The notes below the pieces were generated by a model. The model made no database searches and was not told the origin of the DNA. It saw nothing but the letters and a program-made list of their open reading frames with translations. Shown piece after piece: positions 2 to 27,769 of a DNA stretch of 64,000 nt (position 1 is its first letter; every line of letters begins with the position of its first letter). Origin of the DNA: Planctomycetota bacterium. Its GTDB lineage: Bacteria > Planctomycetota > UBA11346. Location of the stretch: the NCBI GenBank assembly GCA_038318565.1, contig JBBQCI010000001.1:42724-106723 (forward strand), read 5' to 3'. The position numbers were made by a program, and so were the translations under genes.

Positions 2-505
2 GCGATCCAGCTGTGGGACGAGGACGGGGTCGGCCCACTGCTGATGCACGCCTGCACAGAGGACACCCAGCGGACTGCCGGCTGGCAGGCCAGTCTGCAG
101 GCTTCTGTCACCGCCGCCCTGGTCGCCATGGCCAGACGGGCCGCATCGCGGTGTTCGCCTCCGACAACTACCGCAGCGGGTGCTTTAGCCCGGATCAGCC
201 CTGCGCTGGCGGTGATGGGGCAGGACTTCGGCCAGCCGCTGCGCGTACCCGAGTTAGCCCTCGCCTGCAATCTGGGAGCGGTGCAGTTCCGCCGCATCTT
301 CCGCAAGGCGCTGGGCTCCACGCCGGTTAAACACCAACAAATTCTGCGCCTGGCAGAGGCTCAACGCCTGATTGCTGGCGGAGCGCTGGTGCGCGAAGCG
401 GCCGAGGCGGTGGGCTACCGTTCGACGGCTTGTCTGGACCGGGTGTTCCGGCGTCTGGCTGGCACCAGTCCAGGGCGTTGGCGTACCGCTACGACAACTA
501 CCTGA
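2..505 (+). CDS. AraC-family transcriptional regulator, C-terminal HTH domain; the 5' end lies outside the window
   Basis: The frame is open from position 2. The tail ELALACNLGAVQFRRIFRKALGSTPVKHQQILRLAEAQRLI...AVGYRSTACLDRVFRRLAGTSPGRW matches the tandem HTH_AraC signature. Confidence 0.7.
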   Translation, partial: AIQLWDEDGVGPLLMHACTEDTQRTAGWQASLQASVTAALVAMARRAASRCSPPTTTAAGALARISPALAVMGQDFGQPLRVPELALACNLGAVQFRRIFRKALGSTPVKHQQILRLAEAQRLIAGGALVREAAEAVGYRSTACLDRVFRRLAGTSPGRWRTATTTT

Positions 506-2197: not shown

Positions 2198-2488
2198 TTA
2201 CAATCCTTTGCGACTGTAAGCTCGTTCGATCACTCCGCTCAGGTGGGTCTGGGCGTTACGCAGGTCGGTGGCATCCCCGTGCACGGCTGTAAAGAAATCC
2301 GCTCCTTGATCCGTCGGCTTGATGCCGACCAGGACAAAGCTCATACCCCCCAGGATGATCTGCACGGCTTTTCGCTGATCCTCGGTCAAACCGTCCGTTC
2401 CGCGCTCGGCCTCCGCCGGCGAAGTTGGCGCAGCCGGGGGTTTGGCAGCCCCAGCTACGCCCGGAAACTGGATGATCTTATCACTCAT
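2198..2488 (-). CDS. small hypothetical protein (about 96 aa)
   Basis: The ORF has consistent GC3 bias. I place the start at ATG 2488 (MSDKIIQFPGVAGAAK...). It lies upstream of sppA and co-directional with it. No family recognised. Confidence 0.35.
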   Translation of the reverse strand: MSDKIIQFPGVAGAAKPPAAPTSPAEAERGTDGLTEDQRKAVQIILGGMSFVLVGIKPTDQGADFFTAVHGDATDLRNAQTHLSGVIERAYSRKGL

Positions 2489-2675
2489 ACCCGTACGGTG
2501 GCACCGAATGCGGGTGCGCAACCTGGACCGGAGGCGGTGGGCCACTCACCCCCCCCGGTGACACACGCGCCCACTCCCTGTACTCTGCCACCCTTGGTCG
2601 CGGCCAACCAAAGCGCTAGCGTGCAGCCTTGCCCGGCTAGCTGCCGGTACGCATCCACCAGCGGGGATTCACGTT

Positions 2676-4529
2676 ATGGACAGCCATCAGGTCGCCTGGG
2701 GCCTCGACATCGGTCACTCGTCGATCAAGGCGGTCAAGCTCAGCCGCAATGGCAGTGACGTCACCGTACTCGGCTACGCCATCGAGCCCATCACCGTCGC
2801 GGAAGGTGGCGACCGCGATGCCGCCCTCCTCACCGCATTGCAGGCGATCATCGCCCGAGAGGAGTTCGGTGTCACGCCGGTCTTCGCCGCGATCAGCGGC
2901 AGGCAGGTGTTCACCCGCGCGGTCAACGTGCCGATGCTCAACCCCAAGCGCATGCATGCGATGGTGGAGCTGGAAGCCAAACAACAGATCCCTGGCAATT
3001 TCAATGAAGTCGAGTGGGGCTACCACAGCTCGCCGGCTCCTGACGGCGCCTCCCTGGATGTCGCCCTCTTTGCGGTCAAGCGCGAGATCATCCAGCAACT
3101 CATCACCAAGTGCAAAGGCGTTGGCCTCAATCTTGCCGGCGTCTCGGTCCCTTCGCTCGCGCTCTACAATTTCATCAAGTTCGACCAGCAGTTCCCAGAC
3201 GGAGAAGCGGTCATCATCCTTGATGTTGGCGCCGACAACACTGATCTCGTCGTCTACCAGGCCGACCAGCTGTGGATGCGCTCGCTGCCGGTTTCGGGCA
3301 ACGACATCACGCAGGTTTTCGCCAAGAAGTTCCGCGTTAGCGTCGCCGAAGCCGAAACGCTCAAGCGACAGGTCAACGATAGCCGCCAGGCCGACAAGAT
3401 CATCAAGGTGATCGAAAGTGGACTGACCGAACTGGTCAGCGAGATCAACCGCAGCATCGGTTTCTACAGGACGCAGAACACCAAGGCCGCGCTCGACAAC
3501 CTGGTGATCTCGGGGAACACCTTCCGCTTGCCCGGCCTGCCAGAATACATGGCCGAGAAGCTGCGCCTGACCATCAATATTCTCGAAGATCTCGATCGCA
3601 TCCAGGTCGCTGCGGGATTGGATCGTACCCACTTCATGCAGGACCTGCAGTGCCTTGGCGTTGCCATCGGGCTCGGCCTGCAGGCCACCGGCACCGCCCG
3701 CGCCAACGTCAACCTGATGCCCAGCGGCATGCAGGTCGAACGTCTGCTCAGCACCAAGAAATGGGCGGCAGCAGCGGTCATCGGCCTGCTTGGTGCAACC
3801 CTCTTCGCAGACTACTCCATCGCCAACAGCGCGGCGGAGAACAACGCCCGCTTGGCGACCAAGGTGACCCAGTACGCCAAGGACAACAAGGACCGCATGA
3901 AGCAGTCCGAGGCCGTCCTGCAAACCGTGCAGCAGCTGGCCCCGCAACTTGCCGCCTATGACGCAGTCGGGTCAAACCAGGGGCTGACCCATGCGGTCTT
4001 GTCAGGCGTCGTCGGAGTGGTCCAGACCATTGCCACCACCACCGAGATGCGCCCGGCAACCCCGGGCGGGGTGGGCGCGGCCGAACGATCGCCGCCATTG
4101 CAAGGCGCCTATCTCCGCCAGGTCGAGATGGGCGAACCAGCCGGCAACGGCAATACGGCCACCGCCACAGGCAACGATCCCTTCAGGCCGCTGGAGACCG
4201 AACGCATCGTCAACGTCCGGATCGACATCCCCGCCGGTGGCCGTCAAGGCGACATCCGGGCAGCCTTGCTGGATTCCCTGCGCAAGCTCCCGGTACCTGC
4301 GCACCTCCAGGATCTGACGCGTTCCCCCACCCTGTTCACCGATGTGCAGGTCCCAGAGGAGAAGGATGGCCAGGTCGAATGGTATTATCTCGACCGCGAC
4401 AACATCGATGAAGCCGGGAATGTGAAGCCGATCGAGGAGCGTCGTATGCTCTCCACCAGCATCACCACCTTCGTGTGCAAGCTGGCGACGTCTGCTGCAC
4501 CCGCCACTGCTCCGGAGGCCCAGAAGTGA
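2676..4529 (+). CDS. pilMN: type IV pilus / T2SS-like inner-membrane assembly protein, PilM-PilN fusion
   Basis: The N-terminal roughly 350 aa form an actin-like PilM domain (MDSHQVAWGLDIGHSSIKAVKL...). The conserved PilN N-terminal peptide (ANVNLMPSGMQVERLL) follows directly. After it come one TM helix (WAAAAVIGLLGATLFADY) and a PilN-like periplasmic coiled-coil and alpha/beta region. There is a GGGGA ribosome-binding site 8 nt upstream of the ATG. Confidence 0.7.
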   Translation: MDSHQVAWGLDIGHSSIKAVKLSRNGSDVTVLGYAIEPITVAEGGDRDAALLTALQAIIAREEFGVTPVFAAISGRQVFTRAVNVPMLNPKRMHAMVELEAKQQIPGNFNEVEWGYHSSPAPDGASLDVALFAVKREIIQQLITKCKGVGLNLAGVSVPSLALYNFIKFDQQFPDGEAVIILDVGADNTDLVVYQADQLWMRSLPVSGNDITQVFAKKFRVSVAEAETLKRQVNDSRQADKIIKVIESGLTELVSEINRSIGFYRTQNTKAALDNLVISGNTFRLPGLPEYMAEKLRLTINILEDLDRIQVAAGLDRTHFMQDLQCLGVAIGLGLQATGTARANVNLMPSGMQVERLLSTKKWAAAAVIGLLGATLFADYSIANSAAENNARLATKVTQYAKDNKDRMKQSEAVLQTVQQLAPQLAAYDAVGSNQGLTHAVLSGVVGVVQTIATTTEMRPATPGGVGAAERSPPLQGAYLRQVEMGEPAGNGNTATATGNDPFRPLETERIVNVRIDIPAGGRQGDIRAALLDSLRKLPVPAHLQDLTRSPTLFTDVQVPEEKDGQVEWYYLDRDNIDEAGNVKPIEERRMLSTSITTFVCKLATSAAPATAPEAQK

Positions 4530-5629
4530 AGCACCTCTACTGGATCGTGTGCGGCGTCACCATCGGCGTCATCCTCGTCGCCTGGTTCCTCGTTGTGCCC
4601 GCCGACAACGCCAGGGCGTCCAAACTGAAGCTCGACCAGCAGTCGAAGGACCTCAAGGATCTCGAGAAGCGTGCCGAGCGTGGCGATCCGCAAGGCGTCT
4701 TCGATGCCGAGAATTCGGCGGACACCCAGCGCCTGGCCAACGAATATCTGATTACCGAGAACTGGAAGCGGGTCCTGCAGCCGCACGTTGAGAAGTACGA
4801 GAAGCAGATGAAGGACCTCAAGGCCCAGTTGATGGGACGCGGAGCCTATCTGCATACCGTGGTTGCTCCGACGAAAAACACCCTGGAATGGTATAACGCC
4901 TACGCCACCGCTTCCGAGGCACTGGTGGTGCGTCTACGCGACGCCGGTTGTCTGCAGCGGGCCGCCGAAGACGAGATCCGTTCGGCTTCAGGCGAAAGTC
5001 CAGCGGCCGTCCGCAGCAGCGTCGGCCTGTTCACCCGCGCCGCTACATTCCCGGATCCCAGCCAGCATGCGCAGCTGACCACCAGATTGCGCGCCATGGA
5101 ACTGCTCGCCGACCGGCTCATCGAAGCCCGCCTCGCTGTGGCGAACAATCCGCTGATCGGCCCGACCGGCCGCAGCGAAGACCGAGCCAAGGCGGCCGCC
5201 GTGATTTTGTCCGTTGAATGGACTGCTGGCAGCGAGGCCGATGGCGGGGTGCGCAATCTGACCACCACCCTGTCCGGCCAGCTGCAGGCCCGCTCGGTCG
5301 GCTTGCGCCTGACACTTGAAGGGCCATTGAGCGCCCTCCTCGCCGCAAGCTCCACAATGGAACGCAACGCCGAGACGAATCGCCCCCTCGTCGCAGTGAC
5401 CTCAGCCAACCTCAGCCGGCGCGATAATGGCAAAGCCGGCGACCGTTTCGATATTGCTGATGACAACATCAGGCTGGTTCTGGCGGTCGAGATCATCGAA
5501 TTCGCCGAGACTGGAACCGGAACCGCTTCTGACAACGCGGCCAATACGCCAAGCGGTATGCCTCCGGCTATGGGGTCCCCCCCCGGTATAATGCCTGGCC
5601 GTCCACCTACGTCCCCCGGAGGCCGCTGA
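4526..5629 (+). CDS. PilO/GspM-like bitopic membrane protein with a Pro/Gly-rich C-terminal tail
   Basis: The GTG start overlaps the pilMN stop (GTGA). An N-terminal TM helix (LYWIVCGVTIGVILVAWFLVV) is followed by a coiled-coil and then an alpha/beta domain. The tail MPPAMGSPPGIMPGRPPTSPGG is proline-rich. I call it PilO-like from its architecture and its position after pilMN. Confidence 0.5.
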   Translation: MKHLYWIVCGVTIGVILVAWFLVVPADNARASKLKLDQQSKDLKDLEKRAERGDPQGVFDAENSADTQRLANEYLITENWKRVLQPHVEKYEKQMKDLKAQLMGRGAYLHTVVAPTKNTLEWYNAYATASEALVVRLRDAGCLQRAAEDEIRSASGESPAAVRSSVGLFTRAATFPDPSQHAQLTTRLRAMELLADRLIEARLAVANNPLIGPTGRSEDRAKAAAVILSVEWTAGSEADGGVRNLTTTLSGQLQARSVGLRLTLEGPLSALLAASSTMERNAETNRPLVAVTSANLSRRDNGKAGDRFDIADDNIRLVLAVEIIEFAETGTGTASDNAANTPSGMPPAMGSPPGIMPGRPPTSPGGR

Positions 5630-5630
5630 C

Positions 5631-7523
5631 ATGAGCGCCAAGACCTTTCTGATCGCCCATGGCGAGAAGCTCGCTGTCGCCGCCGTTGCCGGCGGCTGCA
5701 CCCTGGTGCTGATGGGCACGATCGACGACCCGACTATCCGCCCCAAAGACAACCAGGCGGCGATCGAGGCGATCAACGCCAAGATCGACGTCGTGTTCAA
5801 AAAGCAGAGCCCACCGGTGATGAAGGAGCCGCGCGCCTACCTCGACCAGCTCCTTGGCCGAATCGCGGACAGCGCGCCGACCACCCCAACGATGGCCTGG
5901 CTTACCAGTCCGCCTGACAAGGGCCGCGGCACAACGGTGATCGAAGGCAAGAATGTGCCACCCAGCGGCACCTACGTCTACATCTACGAACTGCTCGCCC
6001 CCACGGTGGCGCTTGAGGACGCGATCGGCTCGCTAAAAGTCAGCATCGCTCCACCGGTTGTTGCGGCCCAGGGCGCAGGCCGCCGCGTCACCAGCGAGGT
6101 CAGCCGGACCTGGACCCGCGACGACAAGGGCACGGTCACCAACACCGGACGCCACCTAGGCGTGCAGGTACAGATCAAGGTCGGCGACAACGACTGGAAG
6201 GCACTCGTGCTGCCCGGCGCCGGCAAGGATGGTGTGCTGCCGATCGACAAGCTGGCCAGCGCCCCAGTCACGATCCCGACTCCCGAGCCATGGCAACGCC
6301 ATCATCTCCGAGCTCGGCTGATCGCCGCAGCCACCGCCCTGGATCTTGATGCTAAGATCGAACGTCCCAAGCAGAGCGTCATCGTCTATCCTGGCGAAGC
6401 CTCCGCCGGGCCGACCGAGGACCAGGCCCTGCTCGATAAGGCCACGGCTCAATACGCAGCCAAGGATGGCGCACTATACAAGCTGTTCCTGCGTCCCTCC
6501 CCTGGCCCCCTGCCGACCAACAGCACACTGGAACCCGGCGAGAAGCTGTTCCTCGGTCCGTGGAGCCCGATCGCCAAAGTCGACGCCACCGCCAGTGTGC
6601 GCTTCGCCCTGGTTGGTCTCAGCACGGCTCCGATGGCGGAGGACCCGACCAAGACGCGCGACGTCGGACGCTTTTTGCTGCTGCGCCTGTTCCAGCAGGG
6701 CGAGGAGCGCAAATGGATGGAAAAACCTCTTGAATTGAAATTTGGCATCGGCGACGTCCTGGGCGTTAAGGGGGTAAAGATCGAGCATCCGTTTCTTGCA
6801 GGGAAGACGATTGAAGTCGATCTGATGACTCCCTTCGTCATCGACAAGCTAGTCAAGGATGAGAAGCGTGTCCTCTACTGGATGGTACGGGCAAAGACGC
6901 GTCCGACCGGCGGCAAGGACCGCGACCTAGAACTGTCGAACAAGGAAGTTCCAACCGATATCGTGGTACTGAAGAATCCGGAGACGGGCAGCGAGCTCAC
7001 CTTGACCAAGCTCATCAGCATCTCCCCGCCAAACCAGGCGAACGTGCAAGTCTACCCGTATCACGCCAGCCAGTACGTGGAGAAGGATGACTTCACCTCG
7101 GCGCCAAGCGAATTCCGCCAGTGGGGTCTGATCCCCGAAAAGCCCAAGGACTGGGCTCCCGGCAAAGGTCCGCTCGCGGAGCTATACAAGGCCAAGAAGG
7201 ACGAGGAGGCTCTCGACGCCGAAAGCTTCACCACCGACACCGCCTATTACGCCTTCCCTGATGGACGTCTGGTGTGGTGGGAACGGATAGAACACAAACA
7301 GATGGTCCACGACCCGGACGGCGTCCTGAGCGACAAGTCAGCTCTGCCCGCTCCGACCAAGACGGAACCGGCGCCGGGCCCAACCACAAAGCCGCCAGCT
7401 GGCATGCCGCCCACCGGTGCAACCAAGCCACCGGCTGGCTCGTCGCTGCCTCCTCCTGGAGGCATGCCACCCGGTGGCATGCCTCCCAGCTACACCCCAC
7501 CACCAGCACCGCCACGCAGGTGA
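5631..7523 (+). CDS. hypothetical 630-aa signal-anchored periplasmic protein, proline-rich C-terminus (occupies the pilP position)
   Basis: An N-terminal hydrophobic anchor (LAVAAVAGGCTLVLMG) is followed by a roughly 560-aa domain with no recognisable family. The C-terminal tail is PAPTKTEPAPGPTTKPPAGMPPTGATKPPAGSSLPPPGGMPPGGMPPSYTPPPAPP. It sits between the PilO-like gene and the first secretin. Confidence 0.5.
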   Translation: MSAKTFLIAHGEKLAVAAVAGGCTLVLMGTIDDPTIRPKDNQAAIEAINAKIDVVFKKQSPPVMKEPRAYLDQLLGRIADSAPTTPTMAWLTSPPDKGRGTTVIEGKNVPPSGTYVYIYELLAPTVALEDAIGSLKVSIAPPVVAAQGAGRRVTSEVSRTWTRDDKGTVTNTGRHLGVQVQIKVGDNDWKALVLPGAGKDGVLPIDKLASAPVTIPTPEPWQRHHLRARLIAAATALDLDAKIERPKQSVIVYPGEASAGPTEDQALLDKATAQYAAKDGALYKLFLRPSPGPLPTNSTLEPGEKLFLGPWSPIAKVDATASVRFALVGLSTAPMAEDPTKTRDVGRFLLLRLFQQGEERKWMEKPLELKFGIGDVLGVKGVKIEHPFLAGKTIEVDLMTPFVIDKLVKDEKRVLYWMVRAKTRPTGGKDRDLELSNKEVPTDIVVLKNPETGSELTLTKLISISPPNQANVQVYPYHASQYVEKDDFTSAPSEFRQWGLIPEKPKDWAPGKGPLAELYKAKKDEEALDAESFTTDTAYYAFPDGRLVWWERIEHKQMVHDPDGVLSDKSALPAPTKTEPAPGPTTKPPAGMPPTGATKPPAGSSLPPPGGMPPGGMPPSYTPPPAPPRR

Positions 7524-7659: not shown

Positions 7660-10161
7660 ATGCGCTCGCGTTCACACATTCCGACCCACCTCTCGCCGCT
7701 TTTGCTGGCTATCGCCGTCCTGGCGCCTGCCGCGGAAGGTGGGCCTGCGCCGACTCCGGCACCCGCTCCAGCCGCGGTCGAACAGACTGCCCGGCCGGGC
7801 GAGGCCGAGGTCGCAGCTGACGCGGCTTATGCCGAAGCGCTGGCCAAGTATCGAGCAGGCGCCTTCGCCGAATCGCTCGAGCTGGTCGATCGCGCCGTCC
7901 AGCTATACCCGCCGCACGCTGGCGCCCAGCAGCTGCGCAGCGATGTGCTTGCCGTGCTCAACAACCGTGACAACCGCCTCAAGATGGCTGCTGCCTGGTT
8001 CGGCAGCCTGCAGGACGTCCGCACCCAAGAGACCGCCGTACGGCTGGCCGCCCTGCTCGAACGCGGCGACAAGGCGATGGCGGCGGGCGATTTCGAATCA
8101 GCGGAGCTGGACTACGATCGCGTCGACATCGGTATCCGCTCGTTTCCTTTTGCCTTCGAATGGGGCGAACTGCCCAAGCAGGTCGCCGCCAAGCGAGCCG
8201 AGGCCAGCGACAAAGTGCGCCTACGTACCATTCAGCGCCAGACCGATGACCGTCAGGCCGCTGCCGACACGGCCAAACGCCAAGCCGATCTCCAGGCCGA
8301 AGGTCTGCGCCTGAAGGTCGACGAACTCATGCGTCGCGCCAAGACCGCATACGACCGCAAAGATTACCGTCGCTCCGAAGTCGAGTCGTGGAACGCCTAC
8401 GAGTTGGATCGGCGCCGCGACGACGCTCGCGAACTCTATCTCGCGTCACGCCGCGAAGGCCATTACCAGTTCGATGGCCAATACCGTGTCGAGCGCGCCG
8501 AAGGCATCGCCCGGGTTTCGGAGGAGATCCACAAGGCGCTGGTTCCGCAGAATGAACTGCTGGTCTACCCGGAAGATTGGCGCCGCCGCACTCTGCGTAC
8601 TCCGCGAGAGATCGGCACACAGAAGGCCGAACCGTGGATGGCGGCCCTCAACGACCGCCTCGAACAGCGCGTCACCTTCGACTTTCAGGACCAGTCCTTT
8701 GAAGACGTCGTTGCCTTCCTCCGTCAAGTGACCGGAGTCAACATCATCGTTAGCCCGCAGGTCCTGGCCACCGCAGGCGGCGGCACGGTGACCCTGAAGG
8801 TGCGCGAGATGCGCTTCCGGGATGCCCTGAAATGGATCCTGGAAATCACTGGCTGGAAGATGGCTATTCAGGATCAAGCCATCTTCATCAATAATGAGGT
8901 GATCACTGGCGCGGCAGCCCTGCGTCTCTACGACGTCACTGACCTGATCACACCGGTGCGAGACTTCGCAGGTGTCGAACTGGCGTACGCTGCCGGTGGC
9001 GGCGCAGGCGGCGCTGCAGGCGGCGGACTGTTTGGGGCCGGCGGTGCCGAAGAGACTGGCGCAGCGCAGGATCCCCAAGAGTTGGTGGACTTCATCAAGA
9101 ACAACGTCACCAAAGACCAGTGGGGCCAGAACAATATCGACGTGCAGCAGCGCAGTGGCTCGACCCTGTTCGTCAGTCACACTCCGGAAGGTCACGAACT
9201 GGTCGCCCGTCTGCTCGCCAACCTGCGCAAGCAGACGGCCTTGCAGGTCAATGTCGGCGTCCGCTTGTTGGATGTGCGCAAAGGCTTCTTCGAAGAGATC
9301 GGCGTCGCCTGGACGGACAATCCCGCTGGATTCCTGAATAACACTGGCGCCGCGTCACTTCCTGGCAGTTTAGCAAACGGCACACCCGTTGATAGTCTGG
9401 AAGGCTGGACGACACGTCGCAATATGAATGGGGAGGCGGGTTACGTCGCTGACGGTTCGATCACCCAGAACCTGCCTGGTAACCGCACCGGGTATATTGC
9501 CCGCGGCCTAACCCTGGAAGGATCGCTGAACTCATCGAACTTCCTCAATGCTGATCAATTGAACGCCATCTTCACCGCCTCTGAGGACGAAACCGACTCG
9601 ACCGTGGTTCAGCATCCGATGCTCAGTTGCTTCAATGGTCAACGTGCCAATGCGACGTTCATCAACCAGTATGCGTTCATCTCCGACTACGAGATCGTCT
9701 CGGGCAACTACGACCCGGTGATCACGGTGCTGAACTACGGTAATATCCTGGATGTGCGTCCGGTTGTTTCCAGCGACCGCAAGTACATCACCATGGAGAT
9801 CCGACCCACGGCTGTCAGCTTCGTCGAATCAACGACGGAGACGATCATCGGTGTGCAGATCATCAACACTGGCGACATCGGGGTTGTCATTCCTGGCGTC
9901 GGGTACCCGATCGAACTGCCCAACATGCTGGTGCAGACCTTGCGCTCGACCGTCATGTTGCCCGATCGTGGAAGCCTCCTCATTGGCGGATTCAACCAGT
10001 CGACGCGTGTACGCAGCCACAGTGGCGTGCCGTTCCTCAGCCACATCCCGTTCCTCGGACGGCTGTTCAGCAAGAACGGCATCTACGACGACAACCGCAG
10101 GTCCTTTTTCCTGCTCAACGCGACCATCATGGACCTTACCGAGGCCGAGTCGCAGCAGTGA
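7660..10161 (+). CDS. secretin (GspD/PilQ family) paralog 1, 833 aa
   Basis: It has a signal peptide and an Arg/Asp/Glu-rich helical N-terminal region. An STN-like domain follows (VTFDFQDQSFEDVVAFLRQVTGVNIIV...ALKWILEITGWKMAIQ), then an N3-like domain. The C-terminal secretin domain ends with GVPFLSHIPFLGRLFSKNG. Confidence 0.85.
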   Translation: MRSRSHIPTHLSPLLLAIAVLAPAAEGGPAPTPAPAPAAVEQTARPGEAEVAADAAYAEALAKYRAGAFAESLELVDRAVQLYPPHAGAQQLRSDVLAVLNNRDNRLKMAAAWFGSLQDVRTQETAVRLAALLERGDKAMAAGDFESAELDYDRVDIGIRSFPFAFEWGELPKQVAAKRAEASDKVRLRTIQRQTDDRQAAADTAKRQADLQAEGLRLKVDELMRRAKTAYDRKDYRRSEVESWNAYELDRRRDDARELYLASRREGHYQFDGQYRVERAEGIARVSEEIHKALVPQNELLVYPEDWRRRTLRTPREIGTQKAEPWMAALNDRLEQRVTFDFQDQSFEDVVAFLRQVTGVNIIVSPQVLATAGGGTVTLKVREMRFRDALKWILEITGWKMAIQDQAIFINNEVITGAAALRLYDVTDLITPVRDFAGVELAYAAGGGAGGAAGGGLFGAGGAEETGAAQDPQELVDFIKNNVTKDQWGQNNIDVQQRSGSTLFVSHTPEGHELVARLLANLRKQTALQVNVGVRLLDVRKGFFEEIGVAWTDNPAGFLNNTGAASLPGSLANGTPVDSLEGWTTRRNMNGEAGYVADGSITQNLPGNRTGYIARGLTLEGSLNSSNFLNADQLNAIFTASEDETDSTVVQHPMLSCFNGQRANATFINQYAFISDYEIVSGNYDPVITVLNYGNILDVRPVVSSDRKYITMEIRPTAVSFVESTTETIIGVQIINTGDIGVVIPGVGYPIELPNMLVQTLRSTVMLPDRGSLLIGGFNQSTRVRSHSGVPFLSHIPFLGRLFSKNGIYDDNRRSFFLLNATIMDLTEAESQQ

Positions 10162-12359
10162 GCCGGAGGCACCAGGATTCGATGCAGACGGGTTCCGCGC
10201 ATGGGCGCGGCCAGTTGCCGCACGCCCTAGTGCTCACGTGTGTCGCCCTGGTAGGACTGCACGGGGCGGACCCGGTATCTGACCATGTGGCAGAGGCACA
10301 GGTCGGCACTGAGGCCGTCGCCATAGAGCTTATACGGGCCATCGATGATGCGTCCTTTCTGCTGGCTGCAGGACGTGCGCGTGAAGCAGCTGGACGCCTG
10401 AGCGATGCCTTGGCTGCAGCCGGGGCCAATGCCCCGCTGGCTGATCGACGACGGGCCGAAGCGTTGCTCGCCGACATCCATCGTCAGGAATCGCGCGATC
10501 AGACGGCTGGCGCGGAAGCCCTGCGCCGGTCCAGCGCTGCCGATGCCCAGGTTGCAGCGAACCATCAGTCTCGTGCTGCCGGCAATGCACGGGCGGAGCG
10601 CTTGTCGCGTATCGATGATCTGCGTCAGCGGAAACACAACGAGCTGGCGCTGGCACATTGCCGCTCGCTCCTGCACGATCTGCCGGGCGATGAAGAGGTT
10701 GATGCGATCTACCGTGAGATCCTCGATGAGACTCATACCGCCCGCAAGATGATTATTGAGGATCGCCAACGTGAACTCCGCAGCGAGTTGGCATTAATGA
10801 TCGAAAAGTCCCTCATCCCTGAGGGACTTGATGGCATGCCTATGTTCCCATCCGATTGGGGGACGGAGCGCATCCGACGTCAATCACCGATAGATGTGTC
10901 CGATCGTCCGGCCGCCTGGGAAGTGACGTTATCCGATCGGCTTGCCAGCCGAGCAACTGTTCAATTGGACGCAGTGCCACTACAAGAGGCGCTGGAACTG
11001 GTCTCCAAGCTGGGTGGGGTCAACCTGATCCCCGCTCCAGAACTGATCGCCTCGGGAGATCGGCTTATCACGCTGCGCGCGAACGACATGCGCTTGGACA
11101 GCATCCTCTCGTGGATAGCCCAACAGGCCTCAACCACCTGGGGCCTGGTGAGCGGTGGGGTTTTTGTTGGAGAACAGCCGGCTTCCAGTCGCAGCATCGT
11201 CCTGCACGACCTCGGTGAACTCCTGGTCGGAGTCGGCGACTTCCCTGGTTTGAGCCTAGCCATGACCACTGGTGGCGGAGGCGGTGGAACAGTAGGTTTC
11301 CTTGCGCCTGCCGCTACAGGCACAGTTGTCCCGACCGCAGATGACATCGCCGACCTCATCCGCAGATCAGTCAGTCCGGCCACCTGGACCGATTCCGAAA
11401 ACACCATGGTGGTTCGCGGCAATGCCCTGCTGGTAACGGCTCCGCCTGCCGTGCATCGTCTCCTGAGGGAATTCCTGCGCGCGCAATCGGCCCAGCACAG
11501 CCTGATGGTCCGAGTTCAACTGTACTGGTTAGAGTTGACCGACACATACGCCGAAGAGATCGGGGTGCAGTGGAGTAGCGGTGGCACCTACCTGACTGGC
11601 ATTCCCGGCAACGCCACGAACAGCTCCGGTCTGCTCCGTCAGGTTAACGGATGGGCTGTCGAGGGTGGTACGGCCAATCAGCTGCCGGCAAATTCGATGA
11701 CCCTGCAGGCATCGGGAACACCCGGAATGACCATGCAGACATCGTTCCTGGGCGATAGCCAGATCTCGGCAGTTCTTCAGGCAAGCGAGCGAAACCATCA
11801 GGGTCGAGTCCTGCGGTCCCCAGAGGTGGCCTGCATGAATGGCCAGCGGGCGAATGCCTTTTTCGGCGACCAGATCGCCTACATCAGCGACTACGAGATT
11901 GTCAGCGGAAACTATGATCCGGTGATCACCGTGCTCAACATCGGCAGTTCGATCGATGTGCGACCACTAGTCAGTGCGGATCGCCGTTACGTGACAATGG
12001 AACTGCGCGCCGCAACTGCCACAGCAACCTTCACGACCGAAAATATTATCGGCGTGCAGATTCTTGCCGGCGATGTCGGTTTGGCCATTCCTGGACAGAC
12101 CTTTCCCGTCGAACTGCCTAACGTCGAAGTCCGCGAAGTCGGTACAACCGTCATGCTGCCAGACAAAGGCAGCCTCTTGGTTGGCGGATTCACGTCGGGA
12201 CTCGATCAATTCGTTGCGACTCGCGTACCCTTGATCGGATCCATCCCGTTCCTGGGTCGTCTCTTCGGCGCTCGCGGTCGCTATGCCGAAAAGCGCAAAC
12301 TCAACCTGCTGACCACCGTCACCATCATCAACTATCCCGAACTGGAGGCCCGCCTGTGA
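10158..12359 (+). CDS. secretin (GspD/PilQ family) paralog 2, 733 aa
   Basis: Its start overlaps the paralog 1 stop. It has an STN-like domain (VQLDAVPLQEALELVSKLGGVNLIP...LDSILSWIAQQAS) and a secretin domain ending RVPLIGSIPFLGRLFGARG. The N-terminal helical region is shorter than in paralogs 1 and 3. Confidence 0.85.
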   Translation: MSRRHQDSMQTGSAHGRGQLPHALVLTCVALVGLHGADPVSDHVAEAQVGTEAVAIELIRAIDDASFLLAAGRAREAAGRLSDALAAAGANAPLADRRRAEALLADIHRQESRDQTAGAEALRRSSAADAQVAANHQSRAAGNARAERLSRIDDLRQRKHNELALAHCRSLLHDLPGDEEVDAIYREILDETHTARKMIIEDRQRELRSELALMIEKSLIPEGLDGMPMFPSDWGTERIRRQSPIDVSDRPAAWEVTLSDRLASRATVQLDAVPLQEALELVSKLGGVNLIPAPELIASGDRLITLRANDMRLDSILSWIAQQASTTWGLVSGGVFVGEQPASSRSIVLHDLGELLVGVGDFPGLSLAMTTGGGGGGTVGFLAPAATGTVVPTADDIADLIRRSVSPATWTDSENTMVVRGNALLVTAPPAVHRLLREFLRAQSAQHSLMVRVQLYWLELTDTYAEEIGVQWSSGGTYLTGIPGNATNSSGLLRQVNGWAVEGGTANQLPANSMTLQASGTPGMTMQTSFLGDSQISAVLQASERNHQGRVLRSPEVACMNGQRANAFFGDQIAYISDYEIVSGNYDPVITVLNIGSSIDVRPLVSADRRYVTMELRAATATATFTTENIIGVQILAGDVGLAIPGQTFPVELPNVEVREVGTTVMLPDKGSLLVGGFTSGLDQFVATRVPLIGSIPFLGRLFGARGRYAEKRKLNLLTTVTIINYPELEARL

Positions 12360-14869
12360 AGCCCCTGCACCACCGCCGTCTGGCGCTCACCGCCACCATG
12401 CTTGCCCTGGCCTACGCCCCGGTGACTGCCGCCGAGACGCCGCCGGCACCGCCTGCCCCACAGACCACTGGCGACGCCAACGCGGCGGCTGCCTTGGACA
12501 AGTACGCGACCGAACGTGACGCCCACCAGGCGGGACCTAACCAGGCGGCCGAGTACCACTTCGTCCGCGGCATGCGCGCCAGGGAAGAGAACCGCTTGCC
12601 CGACGCCGTGCGCGACCTGACTCTGGCGGTCGACTACGCTCCAGCCAATGCCGAGTACCAGGCCCAGCTGCGCGCTGTCCGCGCCCTCGCCGGCCTCGAA
12701 CGCGACCCGCGTTCGCAGCAGATCGACCGGCTCGTCGATGAGGTCCAGGTCAAGGATCAGGAGCTGTGGAATGAGTCCCAGGCAAAGAAGGCCGAAGGCA
12801 TCGCTGCCATGCAGGCCGGAGACTACAATCTGGCCGATCGCACCTTCCAGATGGCACTAGTACGCGTCGAAAGCCTGCCTTTCTCGGATGATCGCAAGAC
12901 CTCGGCAACGACCGAGCTGAACACCCTATTGGCCGAGGCCAAGACCCGTCGCGAAAGCGCCGACCGTGACGATGCCGCTTCCCGCAATCGTGCGGCATCC
13001 GACCGCAGCCGCGAACTGCGCGACATCGGCCTACAGCTCGAACGTGACCGCATCGACGCCATGCTGCGCCGCGCCCTACGCGCCCGCGAACGTCGTGACT
13101 ACGACGAATCCATCCTGATCTGCGAACAGGTTTTGAAGCTCAACCGGGCCGACGACCGGGCGACCGAACTGCTCGCCAAATGTCGCCGGGAACGCCACGT
13201 CTATATCCGCCAGATGACGGCCGACCGCTGGGACGAGGAGCACAAGCTGCTCTCGGAATCCATCCGCACCGCCATGCTGCCGCAGCTCGAACTCGTACGT
13301 TACACCACCGAATGGCCGGAGATCGACGCCCGCCGCAGCGCACCGGTGCAGGGTCTCGAGGAGAAGAGCGAATCCTGGCGCAAGGAGATCGCCAACCAGC
13401 TGGAACAGGAGATTACGCTCGACTTCCAAGATACCGACCTGGCCGACGTGGTGTCCTTCCTGCAACGGGTGACCAACGCCAACATCGTGCTCGATCCGCG
13501 GGTTCTGGCTGCCACGCCAGCCCCGGTGACCCTACGCGTCGAACGCATGAAGTTGAAATTCGTCCTCGACTTTGTGATGAAGATCACCGGTCTGAAGTAC
13601 ACTATGCGCAACGAGGCGATCTACATCTCCAACGAGGAAGGTACGCGCGGCGACCTCTTCATGAAGATGTATGACATCCGCGATCTGACCCACGCCATGG
13701 CCAGCTTCCCAGGCCCGAGCCTGGAAATCCCTGAACCAGGCGGTACCGGCAGCCAGCTGCTGCCTCCGATCGAAGCTGAAGCCAAGCCGGAGACGGGGGA
13801 ATTCATCGAAATCATCAAGCAGGTGGTCGTTCCCGCTTCGTGGGCCGATGGCACAGGCACGACCATCGAAGAGTACAACGGCTCCATGGTGGTGACCCAG
13901 AGCAATGAAGTTCACGTTCAGATCGACGAATTGCTGCGGGCCCTACGCAATCAGCGCGGCTCGCAGGTGCACGTGAAGTGCAAGTTCCTATCGGTAGAAA
14001 ATTCGGCCATGGAAGAGATAGGCGTCAACTGGCGCAATTATGGTACGAGCACCATCTATGGCGCGCCGCAGCCAACCGCTGTACCGCCGTTCAATACCGC
14101 TCCGATCACGGCAGCGAATCCCGTAAACATCGGCAATGCCGGTGCCTCCTGGCAGGGACCAGGTGCCGTCAATACAGCCGGTGAAGTCAATTCCGGCCTT
14201 GCCGGTAGCGGCCTGCCCGGCTATCTGACCGGGACGAACCTGACGACCACCGGTGGTCTGACGGCCAGCACCGCGACGTGGCAGCTTGGATCCGACTTCT
14301 TCGCCCGCGCTATCGTCAATGCGGTCGAGAAAGAGAATCGGGGCAACATCATCTTCCAACCAGACATCACCCTGTTCAACGGTCAACAGGCACACATCGT
14401 CAACATGAATCAGCGGTCGTACATTTCCGACTACGACGTCGTGCAGGGCCAGTATGATCCGATCATCTCGATTCTGTCCTACGGCACAGTGCTTGATGTG
14501 CAGGCCATCGCTTCGGCCGATAAGAAGTACATCACCCTGACGATGCGACCGACCAACGCGAACCTCGACCAGTTCCGTCGCTTCGTCATCGGTCAGTCCG
14601 CCTTCGGATCGTACCCGCTGACCGTACCGCAGATGGTCTACAACGCGGTGCGCACCTCGGCCACCATCCCCGATGGCGGCTCGCTGGTACTGGCCGGCAT
14701 GACCAATGGCATCAGCAACCGCAGTCACGCAGGCGTGCCATTCCTCAGCCACATCCCATTCCTTGGTCGGCTGTTCAGCACCAATGGCCGGGCCGAGTCG
14801 GAACGCCGCCAGATCATCGTCGTGCAGGCAGATCTAGTCCTCTTCGACGAGATCGAGTCGAAGCTGTAA
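12356..14869 (+). CDS. secretin (GspD/PilQ family) paralog 3, 837 aa
   Basis: The GTG start overlaps the paralog 2 stop (GTGA). It has a clear signal peptide (MKPLHHRRLALTATMLALAYAPVTAAE), an STN-like domain (ITLDFQDTDLADVVSFLQRVTNANIVLD) and a secretin domain ending GVPFLSHIPFLGRLFSTNG. A long Gly/Thr/Asn-rich insertion lies within the secretin domain. Confidence 0.85.
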   Translation: MKPLHHRRLALTATMLALAYAPVTAAETPPAPPAPQTTGDANAAAALDKYATERDAHQAGPNQAAEYHFVRGMRAREENRLPDAVRDLTLAVDYAPANAEYQAQLRAVRALAGLERDPRSQQIDRLVDEVQVKDQELWNESQAKKAEGIAAMQAGDYNLADRTFQMALVRVESLPFSDDRKTSATTELNTLLAEAKTRRESADRDDAASRNRAASDRSRELRDIGLQLERDRIDAMLRRALRARERRDYDESILICEQVLKLNRADDRATELLAKCRRERHVYIRQMTADRWDEEHKLLSESIRTAMLPQLELVRYTTEWPEIDARRSAPVQGLEEKSESWRKEIANQLEQEITLDFQDTDLADVVSFLQRVTNANIVLDPRVLAATPAPVTLRVERMKLKFVLDFVMKITGLKYTMRNEAIYISNEEGTRGDLFMKMYDIRDLTHAMASFPGPSLEIPEPGGTGSQLLPPIEAEAKPETGEFIEIIKQVVVPASWADGTGTTIEEYNGSMVVTQSNEVHVQIDELLRALRNQRGSQVHVKCKFLSVENSAMEEIGVNWRNYGTSTIYGAPQPTAVPPFNTAPITAANPVNIGNAGASWQGPGAVNTAGEVNSGLAGSGLPGYLTGTNLTTTGGLTASTATWQLGSDFFARAIVNAVEKENRGNIIFQPDITLFNGQQAHIVNMNQRSYISDYDVVQGQYDPIISILSYGTVLDVQAIASADKKYITLTMRPTNANLDQFRRFVIGQSAFGSYPLTVPQMVYNAVRTSATIPDGGSLVLAGMTNGISNRSHAGVPFLSHIPFLGRLFSTNGRAESERRQIIVVQADLVLFDEIESKL

Positions 14870-14941: not shown

Positions 14942-15030
14942 AGCGTATCTGACACCGATCGTTTCAATCGTTGCGTCAGTGGGTCCTGGAGATTGCACCT
15001 TCAGCACGCGTCCATACGTTTTGTAAAGAT

Positions 15031-26312: not shown

Positions 26313-27539
26313 TCAGGACAGCGTCTTCTGCAGTTCCAGGATCGGATAGAAGATGGCGATCACGATGGTGCCGACGATCGTGCCCATGATGCCCAACATG
26401 ATCGGTTCGATCAGCGAAGTCAGCGCTTTCACCGTGGCATGGATCTGCTCGTCGTAAAAGTCCGAGATCTTGGCAAGTAACTGTTCCAACGCACCGGACT
26501 TCTCGCCGATGCCGATCATGCGCGTGACCATTGGGGGGAACACCCAGGCGGTCTTCAGGTGACTGGTCAGCGATTCACCCCGCTTAACTTGGTCACGAGT
26601 CGCTAGCAGCGTGTCTTCCAACACCGCATTGCCCGACGTCGATGCGACGATTTCGAGAGCTGCCAGCAAAGGCACGCCCGAGGCGAGCAGAGTCGACATG
26701 GTGCGGGCGAAGCGGCTGATCGCGACTTTCTGGCCAAGCGGGCCGAACACCGGCGCCTTGAGCATCCAGGTATCATTCATACGCCTGAAGTCGCGGTTAG
26801 TCATTGCCAACTTGTAGCCGAAATACGCGGCAAGACTCGCCCCGATCACCACATACCAGCGATCCTGCAGGAATTGCGAGCAGTCGAGCACGAATACCGT
26901 GATGCCGGGCAGCTTGGCATTCAGGCTCTTGAACATTGATTCGAACTTGGGGACGACAAACACCAGCAGGTAGGCGGTGATGCCCAGGACCAGGATCAGT
27001 GAGATCACCGGATAGGTCATCGCTGACTTGATCTCGCGCTTCAGCGATTCATTGGCCTCCAGGAAGTCGGCGAGACGGCCAAGGATGATGTCGAGCTGAC
27101 CAGAGGCCTCGCCCGCCTTCACCATGTTGATATAGATGTCAGGGAAGATGCGGGGGAAGCGGGTCATCGCTTCGGACAGTTCTGTGCCGCCGCGGACCAG
27201 ATCGGCGCATTCCTGAAGACCCATGCCGAAGCCTTTGTTCTGATCCATGGTCTGTTCAGATAGGATCTCGAAGGCTTCGAGCAGCGGGATGCCGGCGCCA
27301 ATCATGGTCGCCATCTGGCGAGTGAAGAGCGCCAGTTCCGAGGTGTTGGCCTTGCGCGCGACCGCACCGAGGCTCATGAAGCCACCCGGTTTGATGTCGA
27401 TGCGCTTGACCCCGGTCACCACTAGGTTCTGCGACTTCAACTTGGTATTGGCCTCGGCCTCGTTGTCGGCCTCGATCTGGCCCTTTACATCGATACCCGC
27501 TGAGTTGCGGGCGGTATAGGCGAACTTCTGCTTTGCCAC
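26313..27539 (-). CDS. pilC: type II secretion / type IV pilus platform protein, GspF/PilC family
   Basis: The two repeated T2SSF domains are present (ALFTRQMATMIGAGIPLLEAFEIL and SRFARTMSTLLASGVPLLAALEIV), with three TM segments. I place the start at GTG 27539, which has an AGGAG ribosome-binding site 5 nt upstream. Confidence 0.85.
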   Translation of the reverse strand: MAKQKFAYTARNSAGIDVKGQIEADNEAEANTKLKSQNLVVTGVKRIDIKPGGFMSLGAVARKANTSELALFTRQMATMIGAGIPLLEAFEILSEQTMDQNKGFGMGLQECADLVRGGTELSEAMTRFPRIFPDIYINMVKAGEASGQLDIILGRLADFLEANESLKREIKSAMTYPVISLILVLGITAYLLVFVVPKFESMFKSLNAKLPGITVFVLDCSQFLQDRWYVVIGASLAAYFGYKLAMTNRDFRRMNDTWMLKAPVFGPLGQKVAISRFARTMSTLLASGVPLLAALEIVASTSGNAVLEDTLLATRDQVKRGESLTSHLKTAWVFPPMVTRMIGIGEKSGALEQLLAKISDFYDEQIHATVKALTSLIEPIMLGIMGTIVGTIVIAIFYPILELQKTLS

Positions 27540-27769
27540 GGCGGCTCCTGGAAAGAGGTCTGCCCATACTATGCGGTCCCGCGTAAGGCCGCAACTGGAC
27601 AAACGGCACTAGGAGCCTGTCGGAGATTCTCCGCTAGGCTTTTGGCTTTCGCGGATTCAGCCTCCCTTTGGTCACGAGTTTGCGGAAACCGCGAAAACAG
27701 GCTCTTTGCGCAAGAGGCAAGCCCGGCAAGCCCACTTTGACCCCCTAGTCGCCTGTCTCCGACAGGCTC

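Follow-up and report, generated by a model that had tools for sequence, protein, structure and literature searches.

A membrane-anchored planctomycete protein family in the PilP slot of type IV pilus-like operons

Introduction

In the type IVa pilus systems of P. aeruginosa and N. meningitidis, the gene between pilO and the secretin gene encodes PilP, a lipoprotein of about 170-180 aa with one small beta domain. GspC of the type II secretion system (T2SS; PF11356) is a bitopic N-in protein with a short cytoplasmic N-terminus and a single transmembrane (TM) helix, which is paired with GspL and whose periplasmic region is thought to reach the N0 domain of the secretin. A related gene order is found in the Amuc_1098-Amuc_1102 cluster of Akkermansia muciniphila, in which the corresponding position is occupied by Amuc_1099, a TM-anchored protein of 337 aa and unknown function. 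To our knowledge, machines resembling type IV pili have barely been characterised in PVC bacteria, with the exception of the medically studied Amuc_1100 of Akkermansia, and we know of no genes assigned so far to the crateriform and fimbrial structures of planctomycetes. The periplasm of these bacteria is unusually wide.

Here, we analysed a 64-kb window of planctomycete DNA (the whole stretch under study), which harbours an operon encoding, in this order, a PilM-PilN fusion, a 367-aa protein, a 630-aa protein in the third position (slot 3) and three tandem TPR-secretins (Table 1). Our literature search on planctomycete PilM, PilQ, secretin and crateriform genes returned nothing covering the slot-3 family described below.

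Results and discussion

That the slot-3 gene is real, as the first-pass annotation of the window had taken it to be, is borne out by its ribosome-binding site and by the identical 630-aa protein, which is annotated as a gene product on further public contigs, one of them a 125-kb NCBI contig. The stop codon of the upstream gene (5627-5629) is separated from the ATG by a single base, and no promoter or terminator exceeding chance was found inside the operon. The gene is co-transcribed with the genes of the PilM-PilN fusion and the 367-aa protein, and it is probably also translationally coupled to them, as indicated by the overlapping or 1-nt-spaced starts and stops together with the GGAGG motif. 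An alternative start of the 367-aa protein at 4475 was rejected; the real start is the GTG at 4526, and the exact 367-aa product is present in a public collection.

Table 1 Features of the operon and of the slot-3 protein.
Feature	Position	Strand	Basis or remark
PilM-PilN-like fusion, 617 aa	2676..4529	+	Pfam PilM_2 6.5e-38
PilO/Amuc_1100-like bitopic protein, 367 aa	4526..5629	+	GTG start overlaps stop of the PilM-PilN gene
Disordered Met/Pro/Gly tail of the 367-aa protein	about 5519-5626	+	
Shine-Dalgarno GGAGG	5618..5622	+	Read from the sequence; 8 nt 5' of the slot-3 ATG
Slot-3 protein, 630 aa (PilP/Amuc_1099 position)	5631..7523	+	
Short cytoplasmic N-terminus with conserved FLIAHGEK, residues 1-13	5631..5669	+	
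Transmembrane anchor, residues 14-31	5670..5723	+	AF2 helix 13-31; hydrophobic stretch conserved
Membrane-proximal helices (residues 42-58, 69-79), then P-x-MAWL-x-x-PPD-x-G (86-98)	5754..5924	+	
D1, FN3-like beta-sandwich, residues 102-255	5934..6395	+	AF2 strands, pLDDT about 85-92
Helical hairpin joining D1 to D2, residues 261-285	6411..6485	+	AF2 model
D2, beta domain, residues 305-460	6543..7010	+	AF2 pLDDT about 87-93
D3, mixed alpha/beta, residues 470-565	7038..7325	+	
Disordered Pro/Gly/Thr/Met tail, residues 567-630	7329..7520	+	pLDDT 36-52
Secretin 1, 833 aa	7660..10161	+	Pfam Secretin 4.3e-21; NCBIfam Amuc_1098_fam 8.7e-22
Secretin 2, 733 aa	10158..12359	+	Pfam Secretin 9e-21; start overlaps stop of secretin 1
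Secretin 3, 837 aa	12356..14869	+	Pfam Secretin 7.2e-23; start overlaps stop of secretin 2

The neighbouring genes define the position of the slot-3 protein. The PilM-PilN fusion consists of a cytoplasmic actin-like PilM domain, a TM helix near residue 360 and a periplasmic C-terminal part; it scores above the cut-off for TIGR01175 (pilM), matches NCBIfam Amuc_1101_fam over residues 4-427 (1.2e-65, below the equivalog cut-off) and can be aligned to Akkermansia Amuc_1101 through the TM segment. The 367-aa protein gave negative results in all sequence-level tests against Amuc_1100 or PilO, and structure comparison alone was successful: its AF2 model (pLDDT 69.6) has the TM helix, coiled coil and ferredoxin-like core of the Amuc_1100/PilO fold, and the ten best Foldseek matches in the PDB are all Amuc_1100 (6lad, 6kny and 6laf; E 1e-6 to 7e-6, probability 1.00, TMt 0.62-0.70), followed by PilO of P. 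aeruginosa (2rjz and 5uvr; probability 1.00/0.99, rmsd 3.1). The PilO-like identity that the first-pass annotation had given to this protein is thus confirmed by predicted structure and not by sequence libraries, and with it the claim that the 630-aa protein occupies the pilP slot, now as the third gene of a pilM/N-pilO-X-secretin order and equally in the position of Amuc_1099. On the downstream side, secretin 1 comprises a TPR-like N-terminal region, weak N0/STN-like matches and a secretin C-domain, while secretin 3 matches TPR_2 (8.8e-6) and GspD N0 (1.3e-4) weakly, both just under the Pfam cut-offs.

In planctomycetes, this operon corresponds to the Amuc_1101-1100-1099-1098 cluster of Akkermansia. 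In both, the genes for a PilM-N fusion (~610 aa) and an Amuc_1100/PilO-like protein (~320-370 aa) are followed by those for a TM-anchored protein and a TPR-secretin, in this order, and the PilM-PilN fusion and the secretins of the window match the Amuc_1101 and Amuc_1098 models. The Akkermansia locus was reached via Amuc_1100, with a query of which residues 31-317 were verified to be identical to PDB 6LAD/6KNY; a search for PilM-PilN homologues yielded planctomycete proteins only among the matches listed and did not reach Akkermansia. The two loci differ in that Akkermansia has one secretin gene instead of three and that the planctomycete operon is preceded by a small divergent ORF and not by an Amuc_1102-like gene. 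Like Amuc_1099, the slot-3 protein follows the Amuc_1100-like protein, precedes an Amuc_1098-like secretin and is anchored by an N-terminal TM helix, but it is nearly twice as long and carries an H-G-E-K box that Amuc_1099 lacks.

This correspondence raises the question whether the slot-3 protein is truly homologous to Amuc_1099 but strongly diverged from it, descended from a common PVC slot-3 ancestor and enlarged by inserted beta domains, so that both would form one family. The shared slot, the N-in bitopic topology and the flanking genes, which are homologous by sequence (PilM-PilN, secretin) or by structure (PilO-like/Amuc_1100), would fit such a descent, and hhalign recurrently picks the same short C-terminal hairpin (residues 439-460 against 314-335 of Amuc_1099), albeit at a non-significant level. 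Nevertheless, we consider this homology improbable, as it was supported by none of the searches. Amuc_1099_fam (NCBIfam NF042425) did not match the slot-3 protein at E<=1, compared to 6.9e-101 for the Akkermansia protein as positive control; hhalign, run with a single sequence as well as with a profile of two sequences that was compared with the full-length protein and separately with its domains, assigned a probability of 0.18-0.4% to the pair and of at most 5.3% to any slot-3 cluster; and the HMM of the N-terminal slot-3 motif gave E=110 and 670 for Amuc_1099.

The first-pass annotation had described the protein as signal-anchored and of no recognisable family, and both statements stand. Pfam and NCBIfam yielded no match at E<=1 and a PDB sequence search with the family profile none at all. 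The N-terminal helix is preceded by basic and followed by acidic residues, and A9, H10, G11, E12 and K13 are invariant in a 22-sequence alignment; the conserved motif together with the TM helix speaks for an anchor that stays in the membrane and against cleavage as a signal peptide. A lipobox-like A-G-G-C23 suggested a lipoprotein, but this reading was rejected: the Cys is placed midway along a hydrophobic helix of 18 residues, which extends beyond it, the conserved motif stands ahead of it, and C23 is conserved only in close relatives (missing from the divergent members P0101, P0102, P0108 and L011). The slot-3 protein is hence bitopic, which makes its topology GspC-like and not PilP-like.

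Behind the anchor, the periplasmic part of about 540 residues consists, according to the AF2 model, mostly of beta-sandwich domains and a disordered tail. The membrane-proximal P-x-MAWL-x-x-PPD-x-G segment is near-invariant in sequence, yet residues 78-101 were modelled with a pLDDT below 50. D1 bears the signature EPWQ-H-x-x-RAR (residues 219-229) and gave tandem FN3 matches in Foldseek (probability up to 0.96), and an FN3-type consensus 'PG..Y.YR.R....NP' recurs across slot-3 proteins. The strands of D2 are very long in the model (393-423 and 431-448). D3 contains the conserved block APSEFRQWGL-PE-PK...PG-GPL, with P476, E484, F488, P492, F495, P502, P505, G513, P514 and L515 invariant in the 22-sequence alignment, and this block is still recognisable among homologues at 24-30% identity. 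An internal duplication among D1, D2 and D3 was not found (hhalign probabilities at most 5%).

Is the protein then a giant analogue of PilP, as had been proposed? Its position between the pilO-like and the secretin genes speaks for it, and like PilP it is periplasmic, is tethered to the inner membrane and has beta-sandwich structure that comes after a disordered segment close to the membrane. However, a similarity to PilP in sequence or fold was not detected. The Pfam models PilP (PF04351) and T2SS-C (PF11356) did not match the protein at E<=1, nor any of 45 slot-3 proteins (this one and 44 others) in an hmmscan at E<=0.1. The model contains beta-sandwich domains, but neither PilP nor GspC appears among the top 50 Foldseek matches of the full-length model in the PDB, which comprise weak tandem FN3/Ig-type matches only (best E 4e-4, TM about 0.1). 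Unlike PilP, the protein combines a TM-helix anchor and a cytoplasmic motif with three domains and a tail. It shares with GspC the bitopic N-in anchor, the short cytoplasmic N-terminus, the single TM helix and the pairing with a partner, here the PilM-PilN-like fusion, but it is much larger than GspC, has no HR-domain, PDZ or coiled-coil match in Pfam, and other T2SS genes are absent from the vicinity of its operon.

The slot-3 gene proved to be a stable part of its operon. In all sufficiently flanked relatives, from 99% down to 24% identity, the gene is present and the order PilM-PilN, PilO-like, slot 3, secretin 1, secretin 2, secretin 3 is kept, so that its absence from orthologous operons, which would have spoken against the initial interpretation, was not observed. 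The trio of PilM-PilN, slot 2 and slot 3 was found in 40 further, more distant metagenomic loci. Iterating the slot-3 HMM over the fetched ORFs converged immediately, with L075 as the sole addition, and profile-profile comparison was therefore required to connect the slot-3 clusters. By hhalign, the family is linked to other slot-3 clusters with probabilities of 92.7%, 92.6% (cluster E, via D2 residues 355-406) and 78.6%, and these are linked to each other with 99.6% and 99.8%. The wider set ranges from 480 to 850 aa, includes MAGs labelled Gemmataceae and Planctomycetaceae among its sources and shares a cytoplasmic H-G-E-K motif (H-x-E-K in distant loci) directly ahead of the TM helix. An HMM of this motif retrieved 57 ORFs at E<=0.003, while the next best ORF scored E=6.6. 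We refer to these proteins as an 'H-x-E-K anchor' grouping, which was defined in this analysis and is not a curated family, on the basis of the pattern [FL]-[LF]-x-x-H-[GIV]-E-K-[ILV] followed by a TM helix and of the position as third gene after PilM-PilN and PilO-like; motif, helix, position and hhalign links place the 630-aa protein in it. These results show that the PilP position is held by a phylum-wide, unannotated, membrane-anchored planctomycete protein family.

The same distribution bears on the question of the binding partners. A core platform subunit that works with PilM-PilN and the PilO-like protein only, as stalk, ring, stator or peptidoglycan-level scaffold, would make no contact to the secretin and would mechanistically not be an analogue of PilP or GspC. 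The trio as the conserved unit, the lack of secretin genes near L011 and near most cluster A and B loci, the conservation being strongest at the cytoplasmic/TM end and the missing PilP-like fold are compatible with such a subunit. On the other hand, three secretin genes always lie directly 3' of the gene in the protein's own clade, and the conserved block of D3 is located far from the membrane, as expected of a distal binding partner. We thus regard a pure platform function as possible but unlikely.

By synteny and topology, and not by fold, the slot-3 protein most likely replaces PilP as periplasmic connector. Somewhat in favour, we suggest that it is the third subunit of the inner-membrane/periplasmic alignment module of a machine of the T4P/T2SS class such as PVC bacteria possess, and that it does the job of PilP in T4aP and of GspC in T2SS. 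Held by its anchor beside the PilN/PilO-like pair in the inner membrane, it would probably contact this pair through its membrane-proximal helices and through the conserved MAWL-PPD motif; the beta domains would span the periplasm, and the distal D3 or the tail would touch the periplasmic N-domains of the secretins, which bear their weak, sub-threshold N0/STN-like matches where a partner of the PilP/GspC type would bind. On the cytoplasmic side, either PilM or the motor ATPase may serve as the docking site of the H-G-E-K box. A farther-reaching scenario, which we put forward as speculative and rather doubtful, is that Planctomycetota swapped PilP for an unrelated, far larger bitopic family, in which the H-G-E-K peptide plugs into PilM or the motor and the multi-domain stalk bridges the enlarged periplasm to a secretin assembly of three conserved paralogues.

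The structural link ties the planctomycete operon to the Akkermansia cluster, and the sharp N-terminal signature of the slot-3 family could be used for annotation. Gene order and topology suggest the family and the three conserved secretin paralogues as candidate genes for the assembly of an envelope-spanning fibre across the wide periplasm. If true, the replacement of PilP would represent a distinct architecture by which T4P-like machines link their inner-membrane platform with the channel in the outer membrane, and the slot-3 protein might be part of the crateriform and fimbrial structures.

The tail of the slot-3 protein had attracted attention in the first-pass annotation by its GMPP repeats and by a similar tail of the PilO-like protein. 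The description was accurate: the Pro/Gly-rich tail (...PPAGMPPTGATKPPAGSSLPPPGGMPPGGMPPSYTPPPAPPRR) contains 36% Pro and three in-frame copies of GMPP and ends in the dibasic PPRR, and the Met/Pro/Gly-rich tail of the upstream protein (...NTPSGMPPAMGSPPGIMPGRPPTSPGGR) has one in-frame copy. These counts of three and one compare with an expectation of about 1.3 across all six frames of the window. Conservation of these tails as a functional element did not hold up. Across the family, a disordered tail is almost always present but differs in composition: in divergent members it is acidic or rich in Ala, Lys and Glu, and the most divergent ones have an acidic tail. In many relatives, the PilO-like protein has no such tail. 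The GMPP tail is thus a lineage-variable disordered extension and not a core functional element. This also concerns the reading of the protein as an adhesin or cargo, located at the surface or in the periplasm, that hitch-hikes in the operon, with the Pro-rich tail as a tether spanning the cell envelope. Adhesins commonly carry tandem FN3/Ig-like domains and Pro-rich tails, but a tail conserved neither in sequence nor in composition, the conserved cytoplasmic motif with its TM anchor and the tight coupling to the PilM-PilN and PilO-like genes over deep divergence render this reading very improbable. The likeness of the two tails is compositional: a DNA repeat common to both was not found, and the three GMPP copies of the slot-3 protein correspond to a short imperfect repeat of 15-21 nt at 7392-7412, 7452-7472 and 7467-7487.

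Results and discussion

The first-pass annotation had described a 630-aa proline-rich protein of no recognisable family at the pilP position. The gene is in place as described, and other public contigs, including one 125 kb long, carry a called gene for an identical product; its ATG has a GGAGG 8 nt 5' of it and is separated from the upstream stop codon by a single base, and the C-terminal sequence agrees with the one quoted earlier. The lack of a family was borne out: Pfam and NCBIfam gave zero matches at E ≤ 1, and a 22-sequence family profile found no PDB chain except one chance match (E = 0.61). Relatives (34 by word-indexed search, 88 when 1.84 billion representatives were scanned exhaustively with HMMER) are all unnamed or hypothetical and mostly 560-650 aa long, and the few with an organism label are Planctomycetes. 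The annotation had regarded absence of the gene from orthologous operons as evidence against its reading; the order PilMN (a PilM-PilN-like fusion), PilO-like protein, 630-aa protein and three secretins was kept in every relative with sufficient flank, from 99% to 24% identity. The gene is a coupled member of the operon, and its position beside PilMN and the PilO-like protein is deeply conserved.

Features of the operon, of the 630-aa protein and of the surrounding window
Feature	Position	Strand	Description
Small divergent ORF	2198-2545	-	about 94-115 aa; no Pfam match
PilMN	2676-4529	+	617 aa; PilM domain fused to TM helix and periplasmic PilN-like part
PilO-like protein	4526-5629	+	367 aa; GTG start overlaps PilMN stop (GTGA); public product begins there
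630-aa protein	5631-7523	+	630-aa ORF
N-terminus	residues 1-13		cytoplasmic; invariant AHGEK
TM helix	residues 14-31		
Helices	residues 42-58 and 69-79		
Low-confidence segment	residues 78-101		nearly invariant P-x-MAWL-x-x-PPD-x-G despite low confidence
D1	residues 102-255		beta-sandwich; FN3-type signature EPWQ.H..RAR
Helical hairpin	residues 261-285		
D2	residues 305-460		beta; very long strands
D3	residues 470-565		mixed alpha/beta; conserved block APSEFRQWGL.PE.PK...PG.GPL
Tail	about residues 567-630		disordered; pLDDT about 36-52 (residues 569-630)
Secretin 1	7660-10161	+	833 aa; 136-nt gap after 630-aa protein
Secretin 2	10158-12359	+	733 aa; start overlaps secretin 1 stop
Secretin 3	12356-14869	+	837 aa; start overlaps secretin 2 stop
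PilC/GspF-type platform protein	26313-27602	-	Pfam T2SSF 2.3e-65; orphan

All genes of the operon lie on the + strand, and no promoter-like or terminator-like sites above chance were found inside it. PilMN matches Pfam PilM_2 (6.5e-38) and NCBIfam Amuc_1101_fam (1.2e-65, under its equivalog cut-off). All three secretins match Pfam Secretin and, weakly, Amuc_1098_fam, with weak TPR and N0/STN-like matches in secretins 1 and 3; 7660-14869 holds three tandem paralogues with TPR-like N-terminal regions. Each is orthologous to its positional counterparts in related loci (47-77% identity) and shares only 24-37% with the other two paralogues, which makes the triplication an old one that has been maintained; the three could assemble into one hetero-oligomeric secretin or act as separate channels. 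The remainder of the window consists of housekeeping genes and one PilC/GspF-like gene with neither ATPase nor pilin genes adjacent, and the motor and pilin genes of a pilus-like machine are absent from the window.

The upstream protein was rightly called PilO-like. Sequence-level comparison gave no resemblance to Amuc_1100 or PilO, and it was the AlphaFold model (pLDDT 69.6; a TM helix, long helices and an alpha/beta core) whose ten best PDB matches were all Amuc_1100 chains (E 1e-6 to 7e-6, probability 1.00, TM 0.62-0.70 on the target structure), followed by P. aeruginosa PilO (2rjz, probability 1.00; 5uvr, 0.99; rmsd 3.1 Å); PilO in the M. xanthus machine model was matched as well. The 630-aa protein therefore occupies the PilP/Amuc_1099 slot. 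A start of the PilO-like gene at 4475 (384 aa, the longest ORF) was rejected as an over-extension of the publicly recorded product.

NCBIfam matches of the operon led to the pili-like gene cluster Amuc_1098-1102 (PMC5332112, PMC10688800). The Akkermansia locus was retrieved with an Amuc_1100 sequence, of which residues 31-317 were verified as identical to PDB 6LAD/6KNY. Its order is Amuc_1102 (238 aa), Amuc_1101 (a PilM-N fusion of 612 aa), Amuc_1100 (317 aa), the TM-anchored Amuc_1099 (337 aa) and the TPR-secretin Amuc_1098 (906 aa). Amuc_1101, like PilMN, joins PilM to a TM helix and to a PilN-like periplasmic portion, a GspL-like architecture within a gene annotated as pilM. In place of Amuc_1102 the window carries the small divergent ORF directly upstream of PilMN, but on the opposite strand; this ORF is kept in seven related loci (L001-L007) at 58-75% identity.

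Scanning metagenomes with an alignment of PilMN gave 80 loci (PilM 28-36% identity), and in 40 of them with sufficient downstream DNA the trio recurs as PilMN (570-930 aa), a slot-2 protein (320-700 aa) and a slot-3 protein (480-850 aa). Ten slot-3 ORF calls, the window's own among them, match public gene products exactly; the few named ones are 'hypothetical protein' entries of Gemmataceae, Planctomycetaceae and Planctomycetota MAGs. The consensus K-N-F-L-L-A-H-G-E-K-[IL]-[VA]-L opens nearly all slot-3 proteins and leads directly into a TM helix (FLIAHGEKLAVAAV in the window). An HMM of this 32-residue segment found 57 ORFs at E ≤ 0.003 among the 4,960 ORFs of the loci, the next best scoring E = 6.6. 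Profile-profile comparison aligned the family of the 630-aa protein with slot-3 clusters B (92.7%), E (92.6%) and D (78.6%), and the clusters with one another (A-B 99.6%; B-D 99.8% over 626 columns). The D1 signature recurs in distant slot-3 proteins as 'PG..Y.YR.R....NP', and a Pfam search of 45 slot-3 proteins gave no meaningful domain in any. The slot-3 protein belongs to an unannotated family that occurs in several planctomycete lineages and has a sharply defined N-terminal signature. Amuc_1099 was rejected as a member (hhalign ≤ 5.3%; motif HMM E = 110 and 670), and no relation of the slot-3 protein to PilP, GspC or Amuc_1099 was detectable.

The AlphaFold model of the 630-aa protein has mean pLDDT 76.9 (beta domains 85-93). 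The protein is bitopic and N-in; it has a conserved box on the cytoplasmic side, a large region rich in beta structure in the periplasm, and a disordered tail that varies. The P-x-MAWL-x-x-PPD-x-G motif is likely a linear binding motif.

A GMPP-type tail common to both proteins had been noted earlier, the PilO-like protein ending in ...SGMPPAMGSPPGIMPGRPPTSPGGR. The likeness holds in composition, with three in-frame GMPP in the tail of the 630-aa protein and one in that of the PilO-like protein (about 1.3 expected over six frames of the whole window). The three copies form a short imperfect DNA repeat, and no DNA repeat common to both tails was found; the resemblance is therefore compositional and not a duplication. 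Nor did the tail prove to be a conserved functional feature. Most full-length family members carry a disordered tail of 15-96 residues after the last conserved block, with 20-40% Pro in most lineages. Pentapeptide repeats of the [GA]-M-P-P-G type occur in separate lineages only 30-38% identical to the window (P0035, P0036, P0050, P0052, P0065, P0090), and tails are Ala/Lys/Glu-rich in L008 and P0099; the members that diverge most (P0097-P0104, L012) have acidic, Pro-poor tails. Among PilO-like proteins, only those of the window, of L003 and of L011 carry a Met/Pro/Gly tail, which is absent in L006, L007, L010 and L013. As this survey demonstrates, the presence of a flexible tail is conserved while its sequence and chemistry are not, which does not match a specific conserved binding element. 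The pattern fits a spacer or entropic extension with drifting composition, to which slippage at repeats in the GC-rich DNA contributes. Among these otherwise unconserved tails, a basic C-terminus is the one trait that recurs: PPRR follows the Pro-rich stretch at 7509-7520, and di- to tetra-basic ends (PPRR, PPKK, PKRR, RRRR) occur in many tails of the same clade and some distant ones.

We infer that the 630-aa protein fills the role of PilP or GspC in a T4P-like machine of the PVC type. Close to the membrane it would associate with the periplasmic domains of PilN-like and PilO-like character, and with its distal domain or its tail it would extend as far as the N0-like secretin regions. The chief alternative, a role confined to the platform and involving no contact with the secretins, is favoured by the many loci in which the PilMN-slot 2-slot 3 trio stands alone; one of them, L011, has the trio and no adjacent secretins. 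In topology the 630-aa protein is closer to GspC than to the lipoprotein PilP, being bitopic and paired with a PilM-N fusion as GspC is with GspL. Of the 'giant PilP analogue' proposed earlier, the slot and the likely role stand, but no PilP-like fold could be shown. One may speculate that the larger size goes with the enlarged periplasm of planctomycetes (PMC11131199) or with the presence of three secretin paralogues. The system type, a T4P/T2SS-class alignment complex of an Amuc-type cluster, is already known; the slot-3 family within it is unannotated.

In L011 (contig CAMCMZ010000015.1 of a MAG labelled 'Candidatus Kuenenia stuttgartiensis'), PdxJ and aminotransferase genes follow the trio. 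Metagenome contig Ga0163144_10035932 (L017, 9.3 kb) ends within PilMN and probably stems from the genome of the window or one nearly identical to it, given 100% identity over PilMN residues 1-419. A gene for a large Ser/Thr protein kinase is found repeatedly beside the cluster (window 14971-18021, L011 3311-6736, L013 2964-6281), in L013 with an FGE-sulfatase domain, and P0073 and P0083, judged by eye, appear to be fusions in which a protein of the 630-aa type is followed C-terminally by one or two FGE-sulfatase-like domains. These observations hint at a functional link.
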